Shown here: positions 1,073 to 63,869 of the stretch, piece by piece | Position numbering within the stretch: the first letter of the stretch is position 1 | How the letters are laid out: each line of letters opens with the position of its first letter | Origin: a virus | IMG/VR virus record: IMGVR_UViG_3300033149_004566 | Coordinates: 48,863-112,862 of that record | Reading direction: 5' to 3' (one strand) | DNA length: 64,000 nt | Program-made: the position numbers and the translations under genes | The notes under the pieces: generated by a model | Seen by the model: only the letters and a program-made list of their open reading frames with translations | The model's database searches: none | Told to the model about the DNA's origin: nothing

Positions 1073-1458
1073 TTGAAAAGGGCATGTGCCCTATTAGAGC
1101 CCCACATAGAGCTAAAAAAATACGTGCCATGATTTCCGAGTTTGGATTTCGGATAGGCGACCCCGAGCTCAGATCTCCTTTAACTATGGACTTGCTTTTG
1201 AAAAATAGAGAAAAAATTCAAAAACAAATTGCCGAAGAAACGTCAGAAACTGCTCTGGAAATGCTGAATAAATCTCTAAATAAATTGAATGACAGGATAA
1301 AGTATCGCGAGGAAATGTTGCGGACGGTTTTATATCCGAAGGGTAAAGTTCCTTTCTCGATACAAAAAAAGTTTCCGATGTCGTTCTGGTCTACTAAAGG
1401 TGGGTTGAGAAATGTTCAAACGGTTGGTGTGAGAAGGCGTGGACGTAAGAAGCATTAG
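1069..1458 (+). CDS. Hypothetical basic protein upstream of terminase
   Basis: ORF coupled to neighbours. Confidence 0.6.
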   Translation: MIEKGMCPIRAPHRAKKIRAMISEFGFRIGDPELRSPLTMDLLLKNREKIQKQIAEETSETALEMLNKSLNKLNDRIKYREEMLRTVLYPKGKVPFSIQKKFPMSFWSTKGGLRNVQTVGVRRRGRKKH

Positions 1459-3127
1459 TCCGTTTTTGGATGATTTTCTAAAAAAATACGATTTCAAGGG
1501 CATGGATGATAACAGAATCATGAAGATGCTCTTGTCGTCTTTAGATTGGTCTACGTTTGCGGAAACGTGGTTTAGAAACCCAATAGATCCCACGCTACCA
1601 TTAAAATTGGAAAAGTTTCAGCGCCGCATCATAAATTATTTTCAATACGGCAAGTGCAGTAACATAATTGTCAAGTGCCCCCGTCAATTTGGTAAAACCA
1701 CTCTCATATCGATATTGTGTAATTTAATTGCCATTTTTGATCCGGGTGCTAAGATAGGCCTATTTTCTACATCACACGACCAGTCCAAGGAGATATTGGG
1801 TAAGGTCAGGAAATTCATGAGAACGTCGGCATTTTCTTACTTACTTGACGATAAAAGCGTTCAAACGCAAACCGAAATAAATTATAAGGATCCTCGCGGC
1901 CTTGGGCATGGGTGCAGGATTAAAGCGTATTCTAGTTCTGGCAAAACCGTTCGTGGCCCCGATTTGACTTACACGTTTATGGATGAAATGGGCCAAATGG
2001 ACGACGACTTCGTAAATCAGGTTGTCCGTCCGATGGGAAGGGCTGTTGGAAAGAAAGAACTCGGGGCAAGCACTCCTTTCGGTACGAGGGGCGAGTTTTG
2101 GAACTCACATGAGAAGCCGTATCATTGGGAATGTCAATCGTGTCATGCTAAGGGCTTTGATGAACCACACCCTTACACGTGCCCGAAATGCGGCGGTTCA
2201 GTTCAGACTCTTGGCCAATATAAAGTGTTTGATGTTTCACCTCTTGACGTGTCTTGGATCACGCCCGAAAAACTTGCGGCAGAAGCTGCACGTCTCGGCC
2301 CGATTGCAGCGCAACAGGAGCTGTTTGGAGAGTTTATCCCGGCCGGAGATACTTATTTTAGACACGACTGGATAGTGAATGCCAGGGTTTTCACGCCAGA
2401 GCAAAATTCAAGATTTTCATCCATGGGAAAACCGTATTATACCTATTATCTTTCCACGGATTATGGTAAACAACGTGATAGAGGCGTGATCATGATAGGC
2501 CATTTTCAGGATGACGTGTTGTATCTGGATTGGGTCGAATCACATCTAAAAATGCCGTATCCAAGATTTCAAGATAGAATGAAAACTCTTTGTGATAGAT
2601 ATAATGTTTCAGAGGCCATTTTGGATGGGAACGGTGTCGGAATTGCTCTCATAGATTATCTCCGCGAGGACGTGCAGGTGCCGATTTTTACCAACAAGCC
2701 CGATTTGGGCCCCGGATATAAGTACGGTAACAAGGAGAAATTTCAGATGTTGGAAGCTCTTGCCAACATGTTGATACGGAAGAGAGTTCGTTGGCCGTAT
2801 CATGAAAATCACTCTGACCCGAGGCAGGAAATGTATGAGTTATACATGATGGAGCAGGAGCTCATCAATTATTCTTATGAATGGGGAAAATCGTCAATCA
2901 TAATGGGAACTCAGAGCGAGCACGACGATAGGGTCATGGCTTTGGCACAGCTCGTTGGGGCAACAATGATGACACATTTTGACGATGTCATGCCGTATGG
3001 GGCTTCTGACGTGTCAAGAGATGATCGCGGATGGCCGGTTTTTGACGAGGTCGGGGAAGAATTTGACGTGATGTGGGTTGATAACACGACGGATCCGGAG
3101 TACGAAATATATGACACCATCTTCTGA
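1439..3127 (+). CDS. terL: Terminase large subunit with a zinc-ribbon insertion
   Basis: Walker A CPRQFGKTT, Walker B TFMDE, motif III ASTP, nuclease STDYG and HDDRVMALA; CQSC...CPKCGG insert. Confidence 0.95.
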   Translation: MDVRSISPFLDDFLKKYDFKGMDDNRIMKMLLSSLDWSTFAETWFRNPIDPTLPLKLEKFQRRIINYFQYGKCSNIIVKCPRQFGKTTLISILCNLIAIFDPGAKIGLFSTSHDQSKEILGKVRKFMRTSAFSYLLDDKSVQTQTEINYKDPRGLGHGCRIKAYSSSGKTVRGPDLTYTFMDEMGQMDDDFVNQVVRPMGRAVGKKELGASTPFGTRGEFWNSHEKPYHWECQSCHAKGFDEPHPYTCPKCGGSVQTLGQYKVFDVSPLDVSWITPEKLAAEAARLGPIAAQQELFGEFIPAGDTYFRHDWIVNARVFTPEQNSRFSSMGKPYYTYYLSTDYGKQRDRGVIMIGHFQDDVLYLDWVESHLKMPYPRFQDRMKTLCDRYNVSEAILDGNGVGIALIDYLREDVQVPIFTNKPDLGPGYKYGNKEKFQMLEALANMLIRKRVRWPYHENHSDPRQEMYELYMMEQELINYSYEWGKSSIIMGTQSEHDDRVMALAQLVGATMMTHFDDVMPYGASDVSRDDRGWPVFDEVGEEFDVMWVDNTTDPEYEIYDTIF

Positions 3128-3884
3128 CTTGCGGCCGAAAATATCCCTTTTTACGTTATTGCCTTACGTGATTCAGGAGCATAAAGCCAAGCGTGCCGGC
3201 TTACACTACGACTTTCGCGTGAAGCGCGGCGAAAATGATTGGGAATCCTGGGCGATAAGAAAGGGATTTCCGAAAAAGCCCGGGATAAAACATCTGGCCG
3301 CACCGACGCCGAGTCATGATGAATATTGGGCAAAATTTAGCGGCGTCATACCCAGGGGTTACGGCTCCGGTAGACAGAAAGTCGTTGAAAGCGGAAAAAT
3401 AGACGTGATAAGGGAGCGAAAGAAAAAAAATAAATCGATTACTTTCAAAAAGGGAAAAGATTATTACACCATGATAAAGTTAAAAAAGGGAAAAAATTGG
3501 TTGATTTTTAAAAACGAGTCGGTGAAGTGGCGCAGGACGAAGAGCGGGGGCAAATTTCCGAAGATCGATGAGATGGAAAAGGGAATGCCAAAAATGACGA
3601 ACAAGCAATATAAGGAGTTTTACAAGCGGATGTTGGACTTGGGCTTGTTGAATCAATATAAAACGATTGGTAAGCCCATAAAACAGGATCATGGGGGCAT
3701 ACCCATAATAGAAGATGGAATGTCGGCTCTTTCGGCTTATCCTACAGCTATAGGGGAAGTGTGTCCGAAATGTGGACACCCGGAAATAAAAACGTGGCAG
3801 CGTCAGACTAGATCTGCTGACGAACCGATGACGCAGTTTTTCAGATGTGTCAGGTGCGGATATACCTGGAGGGAATACGATTGA
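3111..3884 (+). CDS. LigD 3'-phosphoesterase domain fused to a C-terminal TFS/TFIIS zinc ribbon
   Basis: YVIQEHKAKRAGLHYDFRV..SWAIRKG..KHLA.PT.SH..FSGVIP.GYGSG matches LigD PE; CPKCGH..QTRSADEPMTQFFRCVRCGYTWREYD matches the TFS C-ribbon; ATG 3111 preceded by GGAG. Confidence 0.9.
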   Translation: MTPSSDLRPKISLFTLLPYVIQEHKAKRAGLHYDFRVKRGENDWESWAIRKGFPKKPGIKHLAAPTPSHDEYWAKFSGVIPRGYGSGRQKVVESGKIDVIRERKKKNKSITFKKGKDYYTMIKLKKGKNWLIFKNESVKWRRTKSGGKFPKIDEMEKGMPKMTNKQYKEFYKRMLDLGLLNQYKTIGKPIKQDHGGIPIIEDGMSALSAYPTAIGEVCPKCGHPEIKTWQRQTRSADEPMTQFFRCVRCGYTWREYD

Positions 3885-4192
3885 GCGTGACGTATAACGG
3901 TTACACGGCAATACAGCCGAGAGTCATGTTGAAAGAATATATTAAGAGGACAAATAATATTCCAGAAAGACGCGATGATAAATATGATAGAAATCCGAAA
4001 GGAAAACATGCTAAATTAAAAACAAAAGAACCGAAGAGACCCAAATATGATAAGAGTAATAGTAAGCCCGGACTTACCGATGATCAGATTCGTGGAAACC
4101 CGAAGGATTGGAAAAATTATACGATCGTGTTAAAAAATGTCAAAAAGATGCCGAAAATGGTTTTTGATCAATATGAGAGGTGTAGGGTTTAA
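3845..4192 (+). CDS. Hypothetical basic protein
   Basis: ORF filling the gap before portal; start uncertain. Confidence 0.55.
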   Translation: MCQVRIYLEGIRLSVTYNGYTAIQPRVMLKEYIKRTNNIPERRDDKYDRNPKGKHAKLKTKEPKRPKYDKSNSKPGLTDDQIRGNPKDWKNYTIVLKNVKKMPKMVFDQYERCRV

Positions 4193-6003
4193 TGGACGAC
4201 GAATATGACGCATGGATGGACGTGTACAAGCCGGAAAGAGTTGAAATTGAGAATTATGAAGATATAAATGATCTTTCTAATAGCATCGTGTCCATGGAGG
4301 TTGGGTACGAAGTTGCCATAAATATAGAAGATACGGCACAGGAAGACGTCAATTGGTATTATCAAACGCAGGACGAAGAAATACGCCGCCTGAAAAGGCA
4401 TCTCATTAAAAAAACACCGCAAAATTTGAGTTGGGCGTTTTGGGAAGATGATACTGCACAAGCATTTGCCATGGTTATAACTTATACTATAATAGGTGAT
4501 GGCATAAGAGTGCGACCGAGAAAGGACGGCTTGAAGAAAAAGAAAAAAGAAAAATTAGAAAGAATTATAGATGATTTCAATAACAATATCAACGAACGCG
4601 GAGAAGACGTGTATGATATAATTCATCAAGCCGTGATAGGTAACGTGATACATGGAAAACAATTATTTAAAAAGGTGTTTAGAAAAGATCCGTACACTGG
4701 AAAGGAATATTTGTCTCTTTATGAAATAGACATGAGAACCATATCTGAACTTGTAAATCCCATTCATGGATACAGGAAGTTCGTGCAGGATCATTACATT
4801 AATGAAGAATTGCGCGACATTGATAGAAAAACATTCATGGAAACGTACGATCCTTTTATAAATCCGGAAGATAAAAAAGTGATTAATATGGGAATTGCGA
4901 GGCACAGGGTTCCGGTTTATGATAATGAAGTTCTTTTCTTTAAATTTTATAAAAAGCCCCCAATGAGATCTATTGTTGATCTAATAGTTTATAAAAAATG
5001 GATTTATTATTTCATGAAACAGGCCGCCAAAGTTAGGGGCGTTCCGCCTCCAGTAATTACCGTTGGCAATCAGCAGAGCCATCCGACTTCACGTGATTAT
5101 CCAAAGTATCTAAAAAGGGCCGCTCAAATTGGTGGAAAATTAAAAAATTGGGATGCCCTTTCGATGCCTTGGAATTGGGCAGTACAGTGGATGGAAGGTG
5201 GAAGGCCGTTTGATTTCACGCCACATCTTCAATTTATCAATAGGAGAATTGTTTTCTCATTGCTCGGTTCGATATCTCTCTTGGAAGGCGCATCTGGAGA
5301 GCTTCATGGCCATGTCATAGAAACGGTTTGGCTTCGTGTAATTTCAGCATTTAGAAGAAAAATAGCTAGGGTGTTAGAAAAGTGCTACAATGAAGTACTC
5401 AAGATGAATGGCATCAACGAGGAAGTTGTCATTGAGTGGACGCCTTTACGTGAGCCCATTAGTAAAGCTGAAATTGCCGCGATATTATCATCGTTATTCC
5501 AATTGAATGCTCTGAAGGATGTTAATGAGTTACGTGAATTATTTTCAAAGAATGGCATAATAGATTTGTCTCCGATGGATGAAGATGAAGAAGAAAAAGG
5601 CTACGCTGGTACCGGAGTTGAAGAATTGATAACGTCGGTTATGCCGGTACAAATGGAAAATAAAATATTAAAACAAAAACTCGAAGAATTTAGTAAAACT
5701 GGCGATTTCAATAGAAAACAAGTTCACGTGAAAAATTTAAAAAGAAGCCTGTCGATGTTGAACAATTCTTTGGGAACTGAACAGGCAAGACCCGAAAAAG
5801 CCGTGAAAAAACCGTCGATAAAAACTCCCATGAATCCAAAACCGGATTCACTTGGTCATTCATCTTTGAAGATACCATCTTTGAAGGTAAAAAAGGAAGG
5901 ACAGCAATACATGGAAGCATCATCCGACGATGAAAGCACGTGTTATGAGGAAGACGGCGTGAAAAAAGGATATTGCCCGGAGGAAATAAAAAATGGAAAA
6001 TGA
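4192..6003 (+). CDS. Portal protein
   Basis: 603 aa, between terminase and MuF gene, helical character; no diagnostic motif verified. Confidence 0.75.
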   Translation: MDDEYDAWMDVYKPERVEIENYEDINDLSNSIVSMEVGYEVAINIEDTAQEDVNWYYQTQDEEIRRLKRHLIKKTPQNLSWAFWEDDTAQAFAMVITYTIIGDGIRVRPRKDGLKKKKKEKLERIIDDFNNNINERGEDVYDIIHQAVIGNVIHGKQLFKKVFRKDPYTGKEYLSLYEIDMRTISELVNPIHGYRKFVQDHYINEELRDIDRKTFMETYDPFINPEDKKVINMGIARHRVPVYDNEVLFFKFYKKPPMRSIVDLIVYKKWIYYFMKQAAKVRGVPPPVITVGNQQSHPTSRDYPKYLKRAAQIGGKLKNWDALSMPWNWAVQWMEGGRPFDFTPHLQFINRRIVFSLLGSISLLEGASGELHGHVIETVWLRVISAFRRKIARVLEKCYNEVLKMNGINEEVVIEWTPLREPISKAEIAAILSSLFQLNALKDVNELRELFSKNGIIDLSPMDEDEEEKGYAGTGVEELITSVMPVQMENKILKQKLEEFSKTGDFNRKQVHVKNLKRSLSMLNNSLGTEQARPEKAVKKPSIKTPMNPKPDSLGHSSLKIPSLKVKKEGQQYMEASSDDESTCYEEDGVKKGYCPEEIKNGK

Positions 6004-8663: not shown

Positions 8664-9231
8664 ATTGCCGATAACAGTAAAAATGAGCTCTTTAAAATTA
8701 AAAAGGTTGATTCCACAGGCAATATATCATATAAAAAGCGAAGCCGCGCAAATATTGATGTTTAGCATAATAGAAGTTTTCATGCAACAGGGACTTCCGG
8801 ATGAACAATGGAAGCAGTTGTCGGCGATAACTGTCGAGAAAAAACACTCCAGATCTATTTTGATAGATAAGGGATTTTTGATGAACTCCATTACGGTTGG
8901 GCCAATCGATGTTGATAAACCCGTGGAAGTTGGAATATTTGAAGGGCCCGCTCTCAGGTATGCTTGGATACATGAGTTTGGTGGCACGATTCCGGTTACT
9001 GACAGCATTAGAAAATTTTTTATAGCAAAGACCGCAGAAGAACGAAGACAACGTCCAGGATTGCCTGAAGATTCTTACACGTGGCATCCTTTGAGAAATG
9101 ATACTAACGTGATATCAATTCCGGCAAGACCCTTTATGAGGTGGGGCGCCATCATTGCACGTCCTAAAATTAGTAAAATGGCTGAAAGAGTTTGGTATAC
9201 GATGATTAATCAGGGATTGATAATTAAATGA
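8656..9231 (+). CDS. Phage virion morphogenesis protein (Mu gpG / tail S-like)
   Basis: WKQLS..T..KK..ILIDKGFLMNSIT, YAWIHEFGG, IPARPFM. Confidence 0.85.
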   Translation: MIRLPITVKMSSLKLKRLIPQAIYHIKSEAAQILMFSIIEVFMQQGLPDEQWKQLSAITVEKKHSRSILIDKGFLMNSITVGPIDVDKPVEVGIFEGPALRYAWIHEFGGTIPVTDSIRKFFIAKTAEERRQRPGLPEDSYTWHPLRNDTNVISIPARPFMRWGAIIARPKISKMAERVWYTMINQGLIIK

Positions 9232-10064
9232 AAACATTACCCATTTATACGTTGCAAGACACTCTAAATCCTGAAATTTGGATAGGAGATGGTAAAAATG
9301 CAAGATTGCGAAAAAAAATTAAAAATGTCATCATGGATTCCGTTCGTAAATCTTTGGATAAATACGGTGGTAAGCCAAAGCGTATCATCATCGTTGGCTC
9401 CTCTGTTGCTTATAGATGGCGAAAAGACGGTGATATTGACGTACACGTTGAGGGAAAATTTCCCATCAATGACTATGAGGTGGACGAATATAAAATACCC
9501 GGATCAAAATTGACTATAGAGGTGGTATTAACCAATCAAAAATTTCCCAGTACAACGCGCGCTGAGGGCGTTTATAACGTGGTGATGGATAAATGGATTA
9601 AAACTCCAGAACGATTTCCGGGCAAGGTTTATTGGGATCCATTAATAGAGGAAGCGTCTTCATGGGCTAGAAAGGTGGATCTCGATATGGGCGAATTAAA
9701 ACGCGATCTTCTCGAATATATTTTATATAAAGAGAATGGCGGCGACGAGTCTGCCCTTGCAAGAAAAGCCGACGAAATAAAATCCGATTTGAATAGCATT
9801 GTTGATACTTGGGATGCTCTAAAAAATGAAAGAACGAAGGCACTTTCCGGCGATTCCGACGACACGAGGTTTTTTAAAAATCCGAGCAAGTCATCCATGT
9901 TGCAACCGGAAAATTTGATATTTAAAATACTGCAGAGATTTCAGTACAACGATTTGATGAAGCGCGTGAAACAACTCGTCAGGGATCTTCAGGACGAGAC
10001 GAATTTTGATGTTATTGAGAGGATAATAACGAGATTTTTGAAGAAGGAAAGGTGGATTAAATGA
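9228..10064 (+). CDS. Pol-beta-superfamily nucleotidyltransferase
   Basis: LNPEIW, IIIVGSS.AYRW..DGDIDVH (GS..DxD), GVYNV..DKW. Confidence 0.85.
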   Translation: MKTLPIYTLQDTLNPEIWIGDGKNARLRKKIKNVIMDSVRKSLDKYGGKPKRIIIVGSSVAYRWRKDGDIDVHVEGKFPINDYEVDEYKIPGSKLTIEVVLTNQKFPSTTRAEGVYNVVMDKWIKTPERFPGKVYWDPLIEEASSWARKVDLDMGELKRDLLEYILYKENGGDESALARKADEIKSDLNSIVDTWDALKNERTKALSGDSDDTRFFKNPSKSSMLQPENLIFKILQRFQYNDLMKRVKQLVRDLQDETNFDVIERIITRFLKKERWIK

Positions 10065-12528: not shown

Positions 12529-13467
12529 ATGAGTGTTACACATTTAGCTAATACAGCATTACATCCGAGAGTTATTCTTGCAATCGCTGTAAAGCGAGCG
12601 CAGGGTGCGATGATCAGTACCGATTTCTTACCGGAACGTCCAGTAAATAATAAGGTATTTGAATATCGCGAGTACGGTCAAACAGATCGTGAAATCGGAA
12701 CGTTGGCTCCGGAAGTAAATGAAGGCGATACTACACCATTGGACAAACTTGGATACGAGATGCGAGTTAAACGAGCAAAGGAAATACGTTTGGGAACTCT
12801 AATTACAGAACAAGCACAAAAGTTCTTGTTTAGAGATGTGGTTAAAGACCACGTAACATATATTACGGATCGAATTGCTCTTAAACAGGAATCTATGGCA
12901 TTCGACGAATTATTTGAGGTAAGTTCTGTAACCGGTGCTTTAAAAACGACTAAAGATCTGACAACGTCATGGGACGAAACCGATGCCGAAATCCTTAACG
13001 ATTTAGCCGATGCTAAGAAACGGTTTAGGGATATTGCTCACGTCATTCCGGATTCTTTGGTTGTTGGTAGCGATGGTGAGAATGCTTTACTAAAGTCAGT
13101 TGAAATGAAATTATGGAGATATTCCGGGCCTTTCACTCAAACACCGATCATTGAAGGAACGATTGGTCGTCTTAGGGGATTGGACGTGTGGGTTACGGAT
13201 GCGGTTAAATTAAAAGATAATACAGATCCTACGGCTGGATTAATTCCGATTGTTCAGGATCGCGTTTTGGTCACGCGAAGAGGGCCAGATCTGGGTTTTA
13301 CTGCTATTGCCGAACCTTTTAATTCGCGACGAATTCCCAAGCCAGGTCGTCGATCCATCATGCTTCAAATGTTTAAGACATTTTTACCGGTGATCATACG
13401 ACCCAGGCGCATCTACATAATTAACAATATCAGTTCGTCTTTATCAACTGATACTGCTTTATCGTAA
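12529..13467 (+). CDS. Major capsid protein, HK97 fold
   Basis: APEVNEG E-loop, PDSLVVG, GTIGRLRGLDVWVT; position; followed by terminator-like hairpin. Confidence 0.88.
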   Translation: MSVTHLANTALHPRVILAIAVKRAQGAMISTDFLPERPVNNKVFEYREYGQTDREIGTLAPEVNEGDTTPLDKLGYEMRVKRAKEIRLGTLITEQAQKFLFRDVVKDHVTYITDRIALKQESMAFDELFEVSSVTGALKTTKDLTTSWDETDAEILNDLADAKKRFRDIAHVIPDSLVVGSDGENALLKSVEMKLWRYSGPFTQTPIIEGTIGRLRGLDVWVTDAVKLKDNTDPTAGLIPIVQDRVLVTRRGPDLGFTAIAEPFNSRRIPKPGRRSIMLQMFKTFLPVIIRPRRIYIINNISSSLSTDTALS

Positions 13468-13511: not shown

Positions 13512-14690
13512 ATGAAAAGAATACTTTTTTGTTCCGATAGTCCACTTGTAAATAGTGGGTTCGGACACCAATTACACGGTATATTGACGGGATTGAAACA
13601 ATTATATCCCGGAGCATACGATTTACATTGTATCGGATGGCAATACGTTGGCAGGCGATTGAATGTTGACGGATATACATTGTGGTCTAGAAGTGCCATG
13701 GGGTTTGGTGTTGACGTTACATCCGATTACTTGAATATATTAAAACCGGATATTTTATTTACTTTGGGCGATTTATGGATGATTGAATGGTTGACAAACG
13801 TAGATAGAGATTGTCCTTGGGTCGCTTATTATCCGCTTGATGGCACGCCGTTGCCGAAAAGATGGGTTGAAATAATTAAAAAAATGGATTATCCGGTAGT
13901 TTTTTCAAAATTTGCTTTAAATTTATGTAGAAAAGCCGGATTACGGCCTTATTACATACCGCATCATGTCGATACAAGCGTTTTCTTTCGCTTACCAGAT
14001 GAGACAAGATCCAAGTTAAAGGAAAAGTACGGCATTCCGCCGGATAAAAAGGTAATATTGACGGTTGCACGTCCCAATCCGAGAAAAAAATTGCATCTCG
14101 CGTGTAGAGCTCTGGACTTGTTGTATAAAAAAAGACAGGATTGGGTTTGGTATTATCACGGTGATATGGCTCACGATAAGATGTTGAGCAAGGGAACGTT
14201 CAAGGACGAATTGGAATATTCTTTATTCTATAAAAATGGCGCGTTTAAGAGATCTCATTTTAATTATTTCATGGGCGTGTCGGACGCGCATTTGAACGAA
14301 ATATATAACATGGCTGACGTTTATTTCATGCCAACTGGCGGCGAAGGATTTGGATTAACAGTTTTAGAGGCTGGAATGACCGGGTTACCATCCGTTTTAA
14401 CCGATTATACAACGTCAAGAGAGTTAATTGAGGGCAGAGGAGAATTGATAAATGTTAGATCTTATTCGCCCGATGGAAACTCCGAAGGCGTGTTAAAGGC
14501 CAATATAGATATTTACGATGCGGTAGAAAAACTCGACACGATGCTGTCGAATGATGATTTGAGAAAAGAATACGGTTATAAATGTCAGGAAGAATTCATC
14601 AAGTATGAAAAAATGCTGATAATGCCGATGTGGCACGAATTATTTTCAAAAATAAATTACAATTTGGTGGCTCCGGAATGGCAAGAATAA
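13512..14690 (+). CDS. Glycosyltransferase, GT4/GT-B
   Basis: SDSP..SGFG, IPHHVDT, VARPNPRKK, YNMADVYFMPTGGEGFGLTVLEA. Confidence 0.93.
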   Translation: MKRILFCSDSPLVNSGFGHQLHGILTGLKQLYPGAYDLHCIGWQYVGRRLNVDGYTLWSRSAMGFGVDVTSDYLNILKPDILFTLGDLWMIEWLTNVDRDCPWVAYYPLDGTPLPKRWVEIIKKMDYPVVFSKFALNLCRKAGLRPYYIPHHVDTSVFFRLPDETRSKLKEKYGIPPDKKVILTVARPNPRKKLHLACRALDLLYKKRQDWVWYYHGDMAHDKMLSKGTFKDELEYSLFYKNGAFKRSHFNYFMGVSDAHLNEIYNMADVYFMPTGGEGFGLTVLEAGMTGLPSVLTDYTTSRELIEGRGELINVRSYSPDGNSEGVLKANIDIYDAVEKLDTMLSNDDLRKEYGYKCQEEFIKYEKMLIMPMWHELFSKINYNLVAPEWQE

Positions 14691-15792: not shown

Positions 15793-16272
15793 ATGGAGCG
15801 GGCTTTATTATGTACAACTCCTCGTCCTTATACGGGAACTTTTGACATAGATACGGGCGAATTTGATCCTCTTTCTGAACACGTTGAATACATTTCATTG
15901 CCTTCTTCTGATTTTAAATTTGGATTCTTAAAAGGGCATCAAAGTGAGTCAGCGGCGTGTCTTAAAAGACATCCAACATTTATTATGTTTACTACTGATA
16001 TAAATTTTGGAAACTCGATGAGTCCTGATGAAAAAGTTTATTATATTTATGGATACCTCTTTAAGTCGTGGCAATTGAATGGATATTGGTATCAATACGA
16101 CCAGAAACTCTCACCCGATGAGTTTTATGGAACTGTTGCGGGTGGAAGTTGGAGGAGCAGGATAAAGTCTTGCTTTATAGAAAATGATAATATAAAGATA
16201 ACCTGGTATAATCCAGGAACTGCAAACAAGTCGAGAGCATATTTTAAGGGGTCGTATTTTGTCTGGAGATAA
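15793..16272 (+). CDS. Hypothetical beta-rich (structural?) protein
   Basis: ORF within the glycosyltransferase cluster. Confidence 0.6.
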   Translation: MERALLCTTPRPYTGTFDIDTGEFDPLSEHVEYISLPSSDFKFGFLKGHQSESAACLKRHPTFIMFTTDINFGNSMSPDEKVYYIYGYLFKSWQLNGYWYQYDQKLSPDEFYGTVAGGSWRSRIKSCFIENDNIKITWYNPGTANKSRAYFKGSYFVWR

Positions 16273-17434
16273 GTTAAAAGTATTAATGTTGTTGAGAGAA
16301 GACGTGGAAATGCCGTCTGGTGGGATGGGAGTCCATGTTATAAATATTATCAAGTATCTAAAGAATGACTTTGACATTACTATTGGGTGTCTTGCTTGTG
16401 ACCAAGTAACGTTAGTCAAGAAATGGAACGATTGTAGGTTATTAAAAATTGGATGCGAAAATACAATTAATAATACCCTTGAAATGCCGCTCACCGAGGA
16501 AATAATTGAATATAATATTCTTATGAAAATTTTTAGCACGTTTATGAAAGATTGGAAATTTGATATTATCCATATCCATGATAGTCCATTTTGGTTTTGG
16601 GTGTCTAATTTACTTGCACCTTATTATAACTCATCGGTTGTGATGACGGTTCATCTTTCTTATTTTCTCTCGATTACAGCTCCCGATCCTATGAATTACG
16701 CGTTTGAGTTTTATTCTTATCATGTACAAAAAGAAGGACAAGCAATAAACTATTGTGATAATTTGGTAACCGTGTCAAAAAAATATGCGAATTCTTTGAA
16801 GACTTTATTAATTAATGGAAAAAAAATTCACGTCATTCCAAATGGCGTGAATTATGACGAATTGAATAAGGTCAAATATGATAAAAAATTAAAAGAAATT
16901 TTTACCAATGGAAGAAAACTAGCGGTATTCGTGGGGCGAACGGTTTGGACAAAAGGAATTGATATGATATTAGACATTGTTTCCGAATTTCCTGATTATA
17001 ATTTTGTCTTTATTTCTAATATTTCGCCAACACTAGAGCCAATTGTTCCACTTATAGGAAGGATTATAAAATTAATGGATGAGTATGATAACTTGATTTG
17101 GCTTAGAGATGTTGATGATGAAATGAAGTTTAAGATAATGAAAGTAGCAGACGTGGGACTTATGCCATCAATTCATGAACCATTTGGAATTGTGGCTTTA
17201 GAATGGATGGCACTTGGAATTCCATTAATTGTAAGTAATTTAGTTCCACCATGTAATGATGATAATTCTATTTTGATTGAACCAAATTCGGAAGCTTTGG
17301 CTGCTGCTTTGAGAAAATTTGATCCAGATACATACCCCAATTACAAACGACATAATGGAAAAATGAATGCACGTAAACATAGTTGGGATGCAACGGCATC
17401 TAAACTAAAAGAGGTTTATGTTAAATGCCGATAG
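16259..17434 (+). CDS. Glycosyltransferase, GT4/GT-B
   Basis: GGMGVHV, DIIHIHD, IPNGV, FVGR..KGID, PSIHEPFGIVALEWMALGIP. Confidence 0.93.
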   Translation: MSGDKLKVLMLLREDVEMPSGGMGVHVINIIKYLKNDFDITIGCLACDQVTLVKKWNDCRLLKIGCENTINNTLEMPLTEEIIEYNILMKIFSTFMKDWKFDIIHIHDSPFWFWVSNLLAPYYNSSVVMTVHLSYFLSITAPDPMNYAFEFYSYHVQKEGQAINYCDNLVTVSKKYANSLKTLLINGKKIHVIPNGVNYDELNKVKYDKKLKEIFTNGRKLAVFVGRTVWTKGIDMILDIVSEFPDYNFVFISNISPTLEPIVPLIGRIIKLMDEYDNLIWLRDVDDEMKFKIMKVADVGLMPSIHEPFGIVALEWMALGIPLIVSNLVPPCNDDNSILIEPNSEALAAALRKFDPDTYPNYKRHNGKMNARKHSWDATASKLKEVYVKCR

Positions 17435-62284: not shown

Positions 62285-62793
62285 GAAATTTCATCTCTTT
62301 CTATTTTTATTATTTCCGAGTTCAGCTCGTGAACAAAATATTTGTCGTCATTCATTTTTAAAAAATCAAAATCTCCAGACAGTTCCCATGCCATGTCCTC
62401 ATTTTCTGCCCATATTTCTCCAATTTTCATGTATTCTTCTATGAATTTTATGAATACCTTGTATCTCCGATGGCCTACAATCTTTTTATACATTACATGA
62501 AAGAATTTTTTTAACATTGATAAAAACTCAATTTCTTTACGATGTATATCATAAAATATACATCTTGTGGTCTTTTCAAATATTTTAAAAATTTTTTCAA
62601 TAATGGATAAAATTCTATTTTGTTCTTTCCATATCGCCATGTGGCTATCGTTTATATTTAATTTGTCTAAAAGATTTACAGTATTTTCATTTAGACATTT
62701 TATGGGACATTTTCTTGTAAGGAATTTTTTACCTTCCTCTTCTCCATGGAGTTTTATAAAAAACTCCCTGTAATTAAATTTTATTTTTTTCAT
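62281..62793 (-). CDS. Hypothetical protein
   Basis: ATG at 62793 (MKKIKFNY..) overlapping the ligase stop; track start 62943 lies inside the ligase gene. Confidence 0.6.
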   Translation of the reverse strand: MKKIKFNYREFFIKLHGEEEGKKFLTRKCPIKCLNENTVNLLDKLNINDSHMAIWKEQNRILSIIEKIFKIFEKTTRCIFYDIHRKEIEFLSMLKKFFHVMYKKIVGHRRYKVFIKFIEEYMKIGEIWAENEDMAWELSGDFDFLKMNDDKYFVHELNSEIIKIERDEIS

Positions 62794-63869
62794 AATTTTC
62801 CATCCCCTATCATTTTTAGAATTTCGACAAAAAGTTTTCTTTCGTCGCACAAGTAATACAATTTGAGCAGTCTCTTGTACGTCTTGTCTATTGCAAGCGC
62901 ATCTAATCTCACGAAGTATTCCTTGCGGCTCTTCCTGTCGCAAAGATAGTCCAAGTACATTTTTTCCAATTTTCTTTCAACATTGTAGTATACCGATCTA
63001 ACATAGTCCGATATTTCATAAGCTGTCTCGTGAAAGACGTCCGGAACGCCTTTGATAATTGCGTTATCTTTTAACATGTTGTCCACGACTATTTTTTTAA
63101 GGCCGTGTTCCGTGCCGCATGACTTCTTGACCTTGAACATTTTAAAGTATTCGGGTCTCTTTACCTTCATCATATTCACACGGCCGTTAACTTTTGAATA
63201 TACGACCCATCCTTCTCGATCGCATCCAATCTCGTGCTTTTTTATGATGATATCGCTCATCGTCAAATCATCGTATATCTCACACGTTTTCAAGTCGAGA
63301 TTTTCCGCAACTTTTTTCATCTCATTCGGCATGAGAAGGCTCCAATCCTCTTTTGATCTCAGGCCAATTAATCTCAGTTCGGTTTTTTCATATTTCGTCA
63401 CTAGAAAATTGAGAAAGTCCGGCGATATGAGCTCAAACATGAACGTGTATTTTTCCGTGGGAAGATCGTCGAAGGTTGCAACTTGCTCCGCCATCTCTGT
63501 AAATCTATTGGAGAAAGATCCTCTCGTCGAAAATTTCAATTTTCCTTCGTGCTTGTATGGTATAATGAGAACTCCATCCAATTTTTCCGTGACTTGCGTG
63601 TCCTGTGTTAGAAACAATGGATCAATGCTTCTCGGCTCTTCAAAGTCATTGTAAAATTTATCAAACGGATATTCAATTATTTTTTTGTCGGAATTTCTCA
63701 AGATTATGCCCCTACACATTTTTATGTACCTATTGCTGCTCATGACGTTGCTAATCGATTTTCTACAATTTATCTTGAAAAGCGTTCTATTATAATTGAA
63801 CACGTATTTTACGACGTTGTCAAACTCAAAAACGAGATCGACAAGCCTTTTTCCGAGATCTATTACCAT
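62790..63869 (-). CDS. RNA ligase, T4 Rnl1 family
   Basis: FNY..CRGIIL..YPFDKFYN, EKLDG (motif I), STRGSF, TFMFELISP, EGWVV, KVK. Confidence 0.92.
   Translation of the reverse strand: MVIDLGKRLVDLVFEFDNVVKYVFNYNRTLFKINCRKSISNVMSSNRYIKMCRGIILRNSDKKIIEYPFDKFYNDFEEPRSIDPLFLTQDTQVTEKLDGVLIIPYKHEGKLKFSTRGSFSNRFTEMAEQVATFDDLPTEKYTFMFELISPDFLNFLVTKYEKTELRLIGLRSKEDWSLLMPNEMKKVAENLDLKTCEIYDDLTMSDIIIKKHEIGCDREGWVVYSKVNGRVNMMKVKRPEYFKMFKVKKSCGTEHGLKKIVVDNMLKDNAIIKGVPDVFHETAYEISDYVRSVYYNVERKLEKMYLDYLCDRKSRKEYFVRLDALAIDKTYKRLLKLYYLCDERKLFVEILKMIGDGKL

Follow-up and report, generated by a model that had tools for sequence, protein, structure and literature searches.

The gene that we describe here joins a LigD-type 3'-phosphoesterase (PE) to the C-terminal zinc ribbon of the archaeal transcript cleavage factor TFS. 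It lies in a window of 64,000 nt, which is the final part of a 112,862-nt virus record from IMG/VR (IMGVR_UViG_3300033149_004566; 114-nt terminal overlap). We consider it to be a real, intact, and selected gene of an Asgard-linked head-tailed virus. The PE-TFS architecture is conserved, is nearly unique in public data, and is unanalysed in the literature, though not unmentioned. The best-supported explanation for it involves the RNA polymerase of the host: we see about an even chance that the ribbon binds in the polymerase's funnel and brings an active PE along.

The N-terminal part of the protein is similar to stand-alone PEs of known structure. Residues 22-107 match LigD_N in Pfam (E = 7e-16; 58.7 bits, with a cut-off of 31.1), and LigD_PE_dom from NCBIfam is also found (E = 2e-16). 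Among the sequences in PDB, residues 18-134 match CkoPE (3P4H, E = 5e-18), MbaPE (3P43), and MpaPE from Methanocella (5DMP). We also built an AlphaFold2 (AF2) model of the fusion protein from 43 sequences. The predicted local distance difference test score (pLDDT) is 95-98 over the PE barrel (residues 20-130), and when this model was compared to known structures with Foldseek, 3P4H (E = 4e-8, template modelling score 0.80 by target), 3P43, 3N9B, and 5DMP ranked first, with scores of about 0.8 by target. Both the model and these matches have the eight-stranded PE fold. CkoPE, MbaPE, and the Methanocella PE consist of the same minimal eight-stranded barrel and are 37-43% identical to the viral domain, whose nearest homologues are stand-alone PEs or PE-ligase proteins.

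To map the active site, we used the HMMER alignment to CkoPE and the residue roles that were reported for that enzyme (PMC3082917). The manganese ligands are H24, H32, and D34 (His9, His15, and Asp17 of CkoPE), which are shared by 40-41 of the 41 closest short homologues. The phosphate binders are R36 and H69 (Arg19 and His51), and S46 and Q22 are supporting residues. The original prediction, which was made from the DNA sequence alone, had pointed to the same His, His, Asp, Arg, and His within the motifs QEH (H24), LHYDFR (H32, D34, and R36), and SH (H69). All three motifs are present, the five residues are identical in CkoPE, and all five are invariant or nearly so among the 41 homologues. 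The refinement that we add concerns a sixth residue: Tyr55 of CkoPE is replaced by Trp73, which is adjacent to Tyr72. Tyr55 coordinates the water that is thought to attack in the phosphatase step, and it is needed mainly for the 3'-phosphomonoesterase step; Tyr55-to-Ala mutants of CkoPE retain about 20% of their diesterase activity (PMC3082917). At this position, 18 of the 41 close homologues have Tyr and 14 have Trp. We interpret Trp73 as a subfamily variant rather than as inactivation. As judged from its sequence, the PE looks catalytically competent, and it is perhaps biased towards removing nucleosides over removing phosphates.

We place the N-terminal half in the PE superfamily, with a single variant residue. 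It shares the His-His-Asp manganese ligands and the phosphate-binding Arg and His with the stand-alone archaeal PEs. Unlike those proteins, the fusion protein is encoded by a virus, it has Trp instead of the active-site Tyr, and it has a C-terminal extension of 120 residues with the TFS ribbon at its end. Its PE is also from a subfamily in which two residues, "AG", are inserted ahead of the second His.

Among other PEs, we noticed two unusual arrangements. A 2-kb metagenome contig encodes tandem stand-alone PE paralogues of 134 and 122 amino acids, with Ser or Gln at the Tyr/Trp position (L016:348-1218). In two genomes of Thermoproteota, the PE is split: model positions 1-57 and 51-107 are about 1 kb apart within a single open frame of about 500 amino acids (G234:C15:5515-6858 and G342:C2:358592-359935). 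An intein or an inserted domain might explain the split.

The C-terminal part of the viral protein matches the ribbons of transcript cleavage factors. Residues 218-254 match Zn_ribbon_TFIIS (PF01096; E = 1e-17, 63.9 bits versus a cut-off of 21), and TFS_arch from NCBIfam aligns over positions 56-101 of its 101 positions (E = 1e-13). In PDB, the best match to residues 210-257 is the TFS ribbon of Thermococcus celer (1QYP, E = 2e-12), followed by the ribbons of RPC10, RPA12, and TFIIS. The pLDDT of the ribbon is 73-88, and Foldseek ranks the ribbons of TFIIS, RPA12, and RPC10 after the PE structures. The protein has the four cysteines of a zinc ribbon, in the CxxC...CxxC arrangement of the C-terminal ribbons of archaeal TFS, RPC10, RPA12, and TFIIS. 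The acidic hairpin QTRSADEP, which the original prediction had reported as intact, is identical to the cellular consensus. The TWREY end and the end of the interdomain linker are also shared with archaeal TFS. Together, the ribbon and the end of the interdomain linker align to cellular TFS without gaps, with 50-58% identity over 74 residues and up to 74% identity over the ribbon. Among the non-Asgard genomes compared, the nearest cellular TFS that we found were from Caldarchaeales and Nitrososphaerota, but the scan relied on exact peptides as seeds, which biases it, and we infer no donor. The original prediction of a LigD-type PE and a TFS/TFIIS ribbon in one protein is thus borne out by Pfam cut-offs, NCBIfam, matches to solved structures, and the fold model.

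We consider the C-terminal part to be a TFS-derived module. The protein as a whole is not an ortholog of TFS, because the N-terminal zinc ribbon is absent. Cellular TFS have CPxCG...CxxCG at the N-terminus and a full interdomain linker; instead, the fusion protein and its relative P0006 (described below) have the PE and a helical tether, and no RNA polymerase was found in the virus genome. The tether between the PE and the ribbon is poorly ordered in the AF2 model, with two helices. A search of a protein atlas with residues 137-215 gave no usable match.

The fusion gene is not an assembly artefact, because two re-assemblies span the fusion and because a protein that is just 47% identical shares the architecture. 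Specifically, Logan contigs from two runs of one marine-sediment study cover positions 2600-4529 without any difference, with word depths of 128 and 20 (these are contigs, not raw reads). These two runs may be the source samples. Two contigs, one of 117,419 nt and the other of 112,862 nt, encode the identical protein, and a third contig encodes a variant with two altered residues. The 47%-identical relative, P0006 (302 amino acids, E = 3e-34), is from an ENA contig of a different data set and has its parts in the same order. It was the only full-length relative in an exhaustive HMMER scan of 1.84 billion representative proteins, a result that we regard as decisive. An assembly error that joined two genes, or a lack of hidden Markov model (HMM) support for the domains, had been named as ways in which the fusion could prove false; the two re-assemblies, P0006, and the LigD_N and Zn_ribbon_TFIIS scores speak against both.

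The PEs of the two fusion proteins are 52% identical and the ribbons 51%; the values are lower for the tether (32%) and for the stretch of TFS linker (16%). Both proteins keep the active-site residues of the PE. In P0006, all four of the zinc-binding Cys are replaced, while 10 of the 12 residues around the tip are unchanged, including QTRSADEP. Because P0006 retains the tip yet has lost the four cysteines, selection seems to act on the part that would reach the polymerase active site and not on zinc binding. This pattern is the opposite of what would be expected for a generic zinc-ribbon binder, which argues that the polymerase-acting part is under selection.

The fusion is rare. Besides P0006, the only other occurrence from the HMM searches is a doubtful one: in P0120 (169 amino acids, from an ENA contig of 180,551 nt), positions 1-64 of a canonical LigD-type PE are joined to a ribbon of the TFIIS type, which is missing its first CxxC, and a basic tail follows. 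P0120 looks truncated or chimeric, so it could be a decayed second juxtaposition of PE and TFS or a chimera, and we did not count it as a member. A word-index search of 5.8 billion proteins with the whole protein, and another with the ribbon region, each found only the query itself. Scans of IMG/VR with the fusion protein, with P0006, and with the large terminase (TerL) gave only TFIIS proteins of giant viruses or nothing. A scan of one JGI metagenome yielded a single contig with two tandem stand-alone PEs and no ribbon. A scan of the GTDB genomes with the alignment of the fusion proteins gave no match, nor did tblastn against the phage and archaeal virus records in GenBank, and PHROGs has no PE family. 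We also considered whether the fusion might have been born of a common cellular neighbourhood of PE and TFS. This was unsupported in the genomes sampled: no PE was within 3 kb of TFS in 56 archaeal loci, and no ribbon was within 1.5 kb of PE in 31 loci from Thermoproteota.

The fusion gene is part of the packaging and head operon of this head-tailed virus, because its start overlaps the stop of TerL (at 3127) by 17 nt, because a portal-sized open reading frame (ORF) and a MuF gene are downstream, and because the major head protein is encoded further along (Table 1). The original prediction of a late or virion-borne protein rests only on this position, that is, on the overlap with TerL and the head operon; no packaging signal or packaging domain was found in the fusion protein.

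Table 1. The PE-TFS fusion gene, its parts, and nearby or related genes in the window.
Feature	Position	Strand	Basis or remarks
PE-TFS fusion gene (P0001), 257 aa	3111..3884	+	ATG at 3111, TGA at 3882-3884; ORF, Pfam, NCBIfam, PDB, AF2, Foldseek
LigD-type PE beta-barrel, residues 18-136	3162..3518	+	Pfam, PDB, Foldseek, alignment
Basic linker, residues 137-183	3519..3659	+	Predicted helices at 152-158 and 164-176; partly conserved in P0006; no family match
TFS-homologous part, residues 184-257	3660..3881	+	End of TFS interdomain linker and C-terminal zinc ribbon (C217, C220, C246, C249)
Acidic hairpin tip QTRSADEP, residues 232-239 (D237, E238)	3804..3827	+	Between strands 226-232 and 241-246 of the AF2 model
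Large terminase (TerL)	1439..3127	+	Context gene
Portal-sized ORF, 603 aa	4192..6003	+	Assigned by position; family match only faint
MuF/gp7 head protein with LigD polymerase-like domain of the archaeo-eukaryotic primase (AEP) superfamily, single TFB cyclin repeat, and terminal helix-turn-helix	6405..8663	+	Pfam, PDB, NCBIfam
HK97-type major head protein	12529..13467	+	phrog_1650, E = 2e-14
T4 Rnl1-type RNA ligase	62790..63869	-	Pfam RNA_lig_T4_1, E = 2e-17

This archaeal tailed virus is very probably the Nidhogg virus of Helarchaeota, because the habitat and the gene content agree with the preprint that describes this group. The complete Nidhogg genomes are from Guaymas Basin sediment and are up to about 117.5 kb, and the link to Helarchaeota is from CRISPR spacers (10.1101/2021.07.29.454249). 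The preprint reports no clear capsid protein (cf. the HK97-type head protein in Table 1), and it places a gene labelled "ATP-dependent DNA ligase (ligD)" under replication and repair (10.1101/2021.07.29.454249). That clause evidently refers to the PE-TFS fusion gene, which was misnamed and never analysed, and we found no other mention of the gene in the literature. The expectation that no PE-TFS fusion had been described therefore holds as far as analysis goes, but not for this one-clause mention under the name of a ligase. We conclude that the ligase label is wrong for this gene, because an adenylation domain is present neither in the protein nor elsewhere in the genome. PF01068 had no match in the fusion protein or across the 112,862-nt genome; the protein lacks the nucleotidyltransferase and OB domains of ligase D, and only about 70 residues between the PE and the ribbon are unassigned. 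Across the same genome, we found no Ku, no ATP-dependent DNA ligase, no TBP, and no RtcB. Without Ku and an ATP-dependent DNA ligase, the virus does not encode a self-contained kit for non-homologous end joining (NHEJ). The only ligase-like gene that we found is the Rnl1-type RNA ligase, about 60 kb from the fusion gene.

The MuF gene, which is about 2.5 kb downstream of the fusion gene, encodes a second protein that combines parts of LigD and of a transcription factor. The protein is 745-752 amino acids long. Residues 145-266 are its gp7/MuF core, and residues 617-703 are a TFB cyclin repeat (Pfam E = 3e-12; the PDB matches are 1AIS and 1D3U). The TFB part lacks the B-ribbon and the reader. 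The central domain has a weak match to the LigD polymerase (ligD_pol in NCBIfam, E = 1e-4; 15 bits in Pfam). The sole homologue that we found, P0158 (828 amino acids, 34-38% identity), is from a 7-kb ENA contig and has the same three parts; its polymerase domain scores 27.1 bits versus a cut-off of 27.4. A profile of this PolDom-like domain, built from the two sequences, matches the Prim-Pol domains of true three-domain LigDs (40.5 and 28.8 bits), and the DxD, SGxxGxH, and downstream Asp columns are invariant. Foldseek with a low-confidence fold of the region (pLDDT 54) puts eleven LigD PolDom chains first, which is only supportive. Both accessory modules of LigD (the polymerase-like module, or POL, and the PE) are thus present on separate proteins, each joined to part of a basal transcription factor: there are two independent attachments of this kind within 5.5 kb. 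The MuF-PolDom-TFB protein is probably carried in the capsid.

How might the fusion protein act? The architecture, the catalytic residues, the rarity, the conservation, and the genomic context are established by the results above. From its domain content, we infer binding to RNA polymerase, enzymatic activity, a substrate, and a biological purpose, as follows. All of the matches to TFIIS-type ribbons that we found in Pfam, PDB, NCBIfam, and Foldseek, as well as those in the literature cited here, are RNA polymerase subunits or cleavage factors (PMC7289017, PMC8448823). Such ribbons enter the polymerase via the nucleoside triphosphate (NTP)-entry funnel, where their two carboxylates stimulate the polymerase itself to cleave backtracked RNA endonucleolytically (PMC7289017). 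In the structure of TFS4 with RNA polymerase, the N-terminal ribbon of the factor docks between the jaw and the lobe (PMC8448823). The C-terminal 50-70 residues of the fusion protein correspond to a cellular TFS without its N-terminal zinc ribbon. We propose that the fusion gene is transcribed together with the packaging and head genes and that the ribbon of its product enters the NTP-entry funnel of the host RNA polymerase. D237 and E238 would then be at the active site, and the polymerase's own transcript cleavage would be switched on. Where TFS has the N-terminal ribbon that normally docks on the jaw and lobe, the viral protein has a PE barrel of the manganese type, on a tether that is basic, partly helical, and about 70 residues long. 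This tether would keep the PE at the funnel mouth, the site at which 3' RNA segments exit from backtracked complexes, and the PE could also reach the ends of RNA-DNA hybrids in transcription complexes. PE enzymes take the 3'-terminal nucleoside off a ribonucleotide-ended primer strand and then the 3'-phosphate (PMC3082917), and the tethered PE might remove 3'-terminal nucleosides or 3'-phosphates at these sites. It could trim 3' ends that are extruded or blocked, it could convert transcripts into primers for PolDom or PrimPol, or it could serve only as a new anchor.

Several observations weigh against this proposal. The affinity of the fusion protein for the polymerase is uncertain, as it lacks the N-terminal ribbon and most of the TFS linker that anchors the factor to the jaw (PMC8448823). 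The folded barrel, at about 14 kDa, is too large to enter the funnel, which makes any target for the PE there conjecture. Cleavage by the polymerase leaves a 3'-OH that needs no healing. The active-site Tyr of the PE is replaced, and the score of the TFS model in NCBIfam is under the full-length cut-off (51.7 versus 64.75). Also, the argument from conservation is one comparison, between the only two full-length members that are known.

A doubtful alternative is that the protein processes DNA ends or primers without any link to RNA polymerase, so that the ribbon would be merely a module for binding nucleic acids or proteins. The PE might trim the ribonucleotide tracts of a viral PolDom or PrimPol, or it might heal 3'-phosphates during genome circularisation, replication, or repair, using the Ku and ligase of the host. 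The genome does contain both a PE and a PolDom-like domain; PE trims POL-made ribonucleotide tracts to a ligatable 3'-monoribonucleotide (PMC3082917); the PE has its nearest homologues among stand-alone PEs and PE-ligase proteins; and the Nidhogg preprint files the gene under replication and repair. But the genome has neither Ku nor a DNA ligase, the gene is in the head and packaging operon and outside the replication module, and the exact polymerase-directed tip is kept even in P0006, which has lost the zinc ligands. Alternatively, the ribbon might fill the funnel and modulate or inhibit the host RNA polymerase, either by competing with the TFS paralogues of the host or by slowing transcription, with the PE as a bulky anchor. 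Potent inhibition by funnel-binding TFS paralogues is known, as is the targeting of RNA polymerase by archaeal viruses (TFS4 and RIP; PMC7289017, PMC8448823). The neighbouring TFB cyclin repeat, without its B-ribbon and reader, could be dominant-negative. However, TFS4 lost the DE pair and gained Lys (PMC7289017), while the DE pair and the whole tip are canonical here, and the PE active-site residues, which a mere anchor would not need, are kept in both members. We think that inhibition is quite unlikely.

The remaining alternatives are less likely still. The PE might be the healing half of an RNA repair system, in which it would strip 3'-phosphates from RNAs that were cut by host defence nucleases and the viral Rnl1-type ligase would seal them. 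The virus does encode an Rnl1-type RNA ligase, and the 3'-phosphatase activity of PE does act on ribonucleotide ends (PMC3082917). But the two genes are about 60 kb apart in different modules, the Tyr that is most important for the phosphatase step is replaced, and the TFS ribbon would be left unexplained; also, we did not see a polynucleotide kinase, although none was searched for. RNA repair is very unlikely, and it is hardly credible that the gene is an accidental or decaying fusion without function, or an assembly chimera. The extreme rarity of the fusion and the truncated look of P0120 would fit such an origin. However, the reading frame is continuous, the sequence is identical in two independently re-assembled runs, the same protein is on two contigs with a two-residue variant on a third, and P0006 has the same order of parts with conserved catalytic residues.

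The proposal that the ribbon brings the PE to the host RNA polymerase also takes in the MuF-PolDom-TFB protein: together, the two proteins would shift the POL and PE activities of LigD from DNA breaks to the host's transcription machinery. In a more specific two-protein system, which we consider to be unlikely, the TFB cyclin repeat would direct POL chemistry to the promoter and TBP, and the TFS ribbon would direct PE chemistry to the polymerase funnel. In one version, transcripts that the host polymerase makes on the incoming genome would be cleaved, trimmed, and extended to form primers for viral DNA synthesis. In another version, the fusion protein would rescue RNA 3' ends that are blocked or chain-terminated, for instance by viperin-type 3'-deoxy-3',4'-didehydro (ddh) nucleotides. 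The ribbon could do so via cleavage by the polymerase, and the PE could do so by directly excising the terminal nucleoside. Viperin-type ddh-nucleotides are reported in Asgard archaea.

Known systems resemble the viral proteins only in part. Bacterial LigD, which combines ligase, POL, and PE, shares the PE module with the fusion protein and the POL-like module with the product of the neighbouring gene. Unlike LigD, the gene has no ligase domain; the genome lacks one too, as well as Ku, and the modules are on separate proteins, each with part of a transcription factor. Like TFS4 from Saccharolobus and the virus-encoded RIP, which are the known polymerase-directed factors in archaeal virus-host conflict, the fusion protein is a small factor that would act on the host RNA polymerase during infection, and the funnel is the same for TFS4. 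But TFS4 is encoded by the host and lacks the DE pair, RIP is an unrelated protein that binds in the DNA channel, and neither has an enzyme domain. The TFIIS homologues of large DNA viruses of eukaryotes (the matches labelled GVMAG in IMG/VR) are virus-encoded ribbons with QTRSADEP and are 50-54% identical over the ribbon. The giant-virus TFIIS homologue P0005 lacks the PE, whereas the fusion is in an archaeal tailed virus in which no RNA polymerase was found. Giant viruses are generally held to encode their own multisubunit RNA polymerases, which are served by their TFIIS homologues. In our searches of the literature and databases, this gene was the only case of an archaeal virus with a TFS-type cleavage-factor module, and we found no description, for any system, of an enzyme tethered to a ribbon of the TFIIS type.

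Should the ribbon indeed bind in the funnel, the fusion protein would be a natural example of how an enzyme can be brought to the secondary channel of an RNA polymerase that is archaeal and eukaryote-like, and viruses would have a new way of manipulating transcription. Together with the parallel fusion of PolDom and TFB, this suggests that, in viruses of Asgard archaea, end chemistry of the NHEJ type is tied to transcription more widely than has been recognised. In any case, the published annotation should be corrected, as this gene is not a ligase.

We also made some observations about other genes in the window. Residues 229-256 of TerL are a small Cys-rich insert (DUF7129, E = 3e-5), with the ATPase part on one side and the nuclease part on the other. 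Between the fusion gene and the portal-sized ORF, a small ORF (3845-4192, + strand) encodes a very basic protein of 88-115 amino acids, depending on the start codon, with no family match. After the MuF gene and a gpS-like gene, the ORF at 9228-10064 (+ strand) gave a weak signal for a Pol-beta nucleotidyltransferase (Pfam E = 0.0025), which was not supported by PDB or NCBIfam, so we rejected it. The structural module also contains two glycosyltransferases of the GT4 family (13512-14690 and 16259-17434, both on the + strand). In one of them, the N-domain resembles that of starch synthases, and this protein is probably what the preprint calls a "GlgA homolog".

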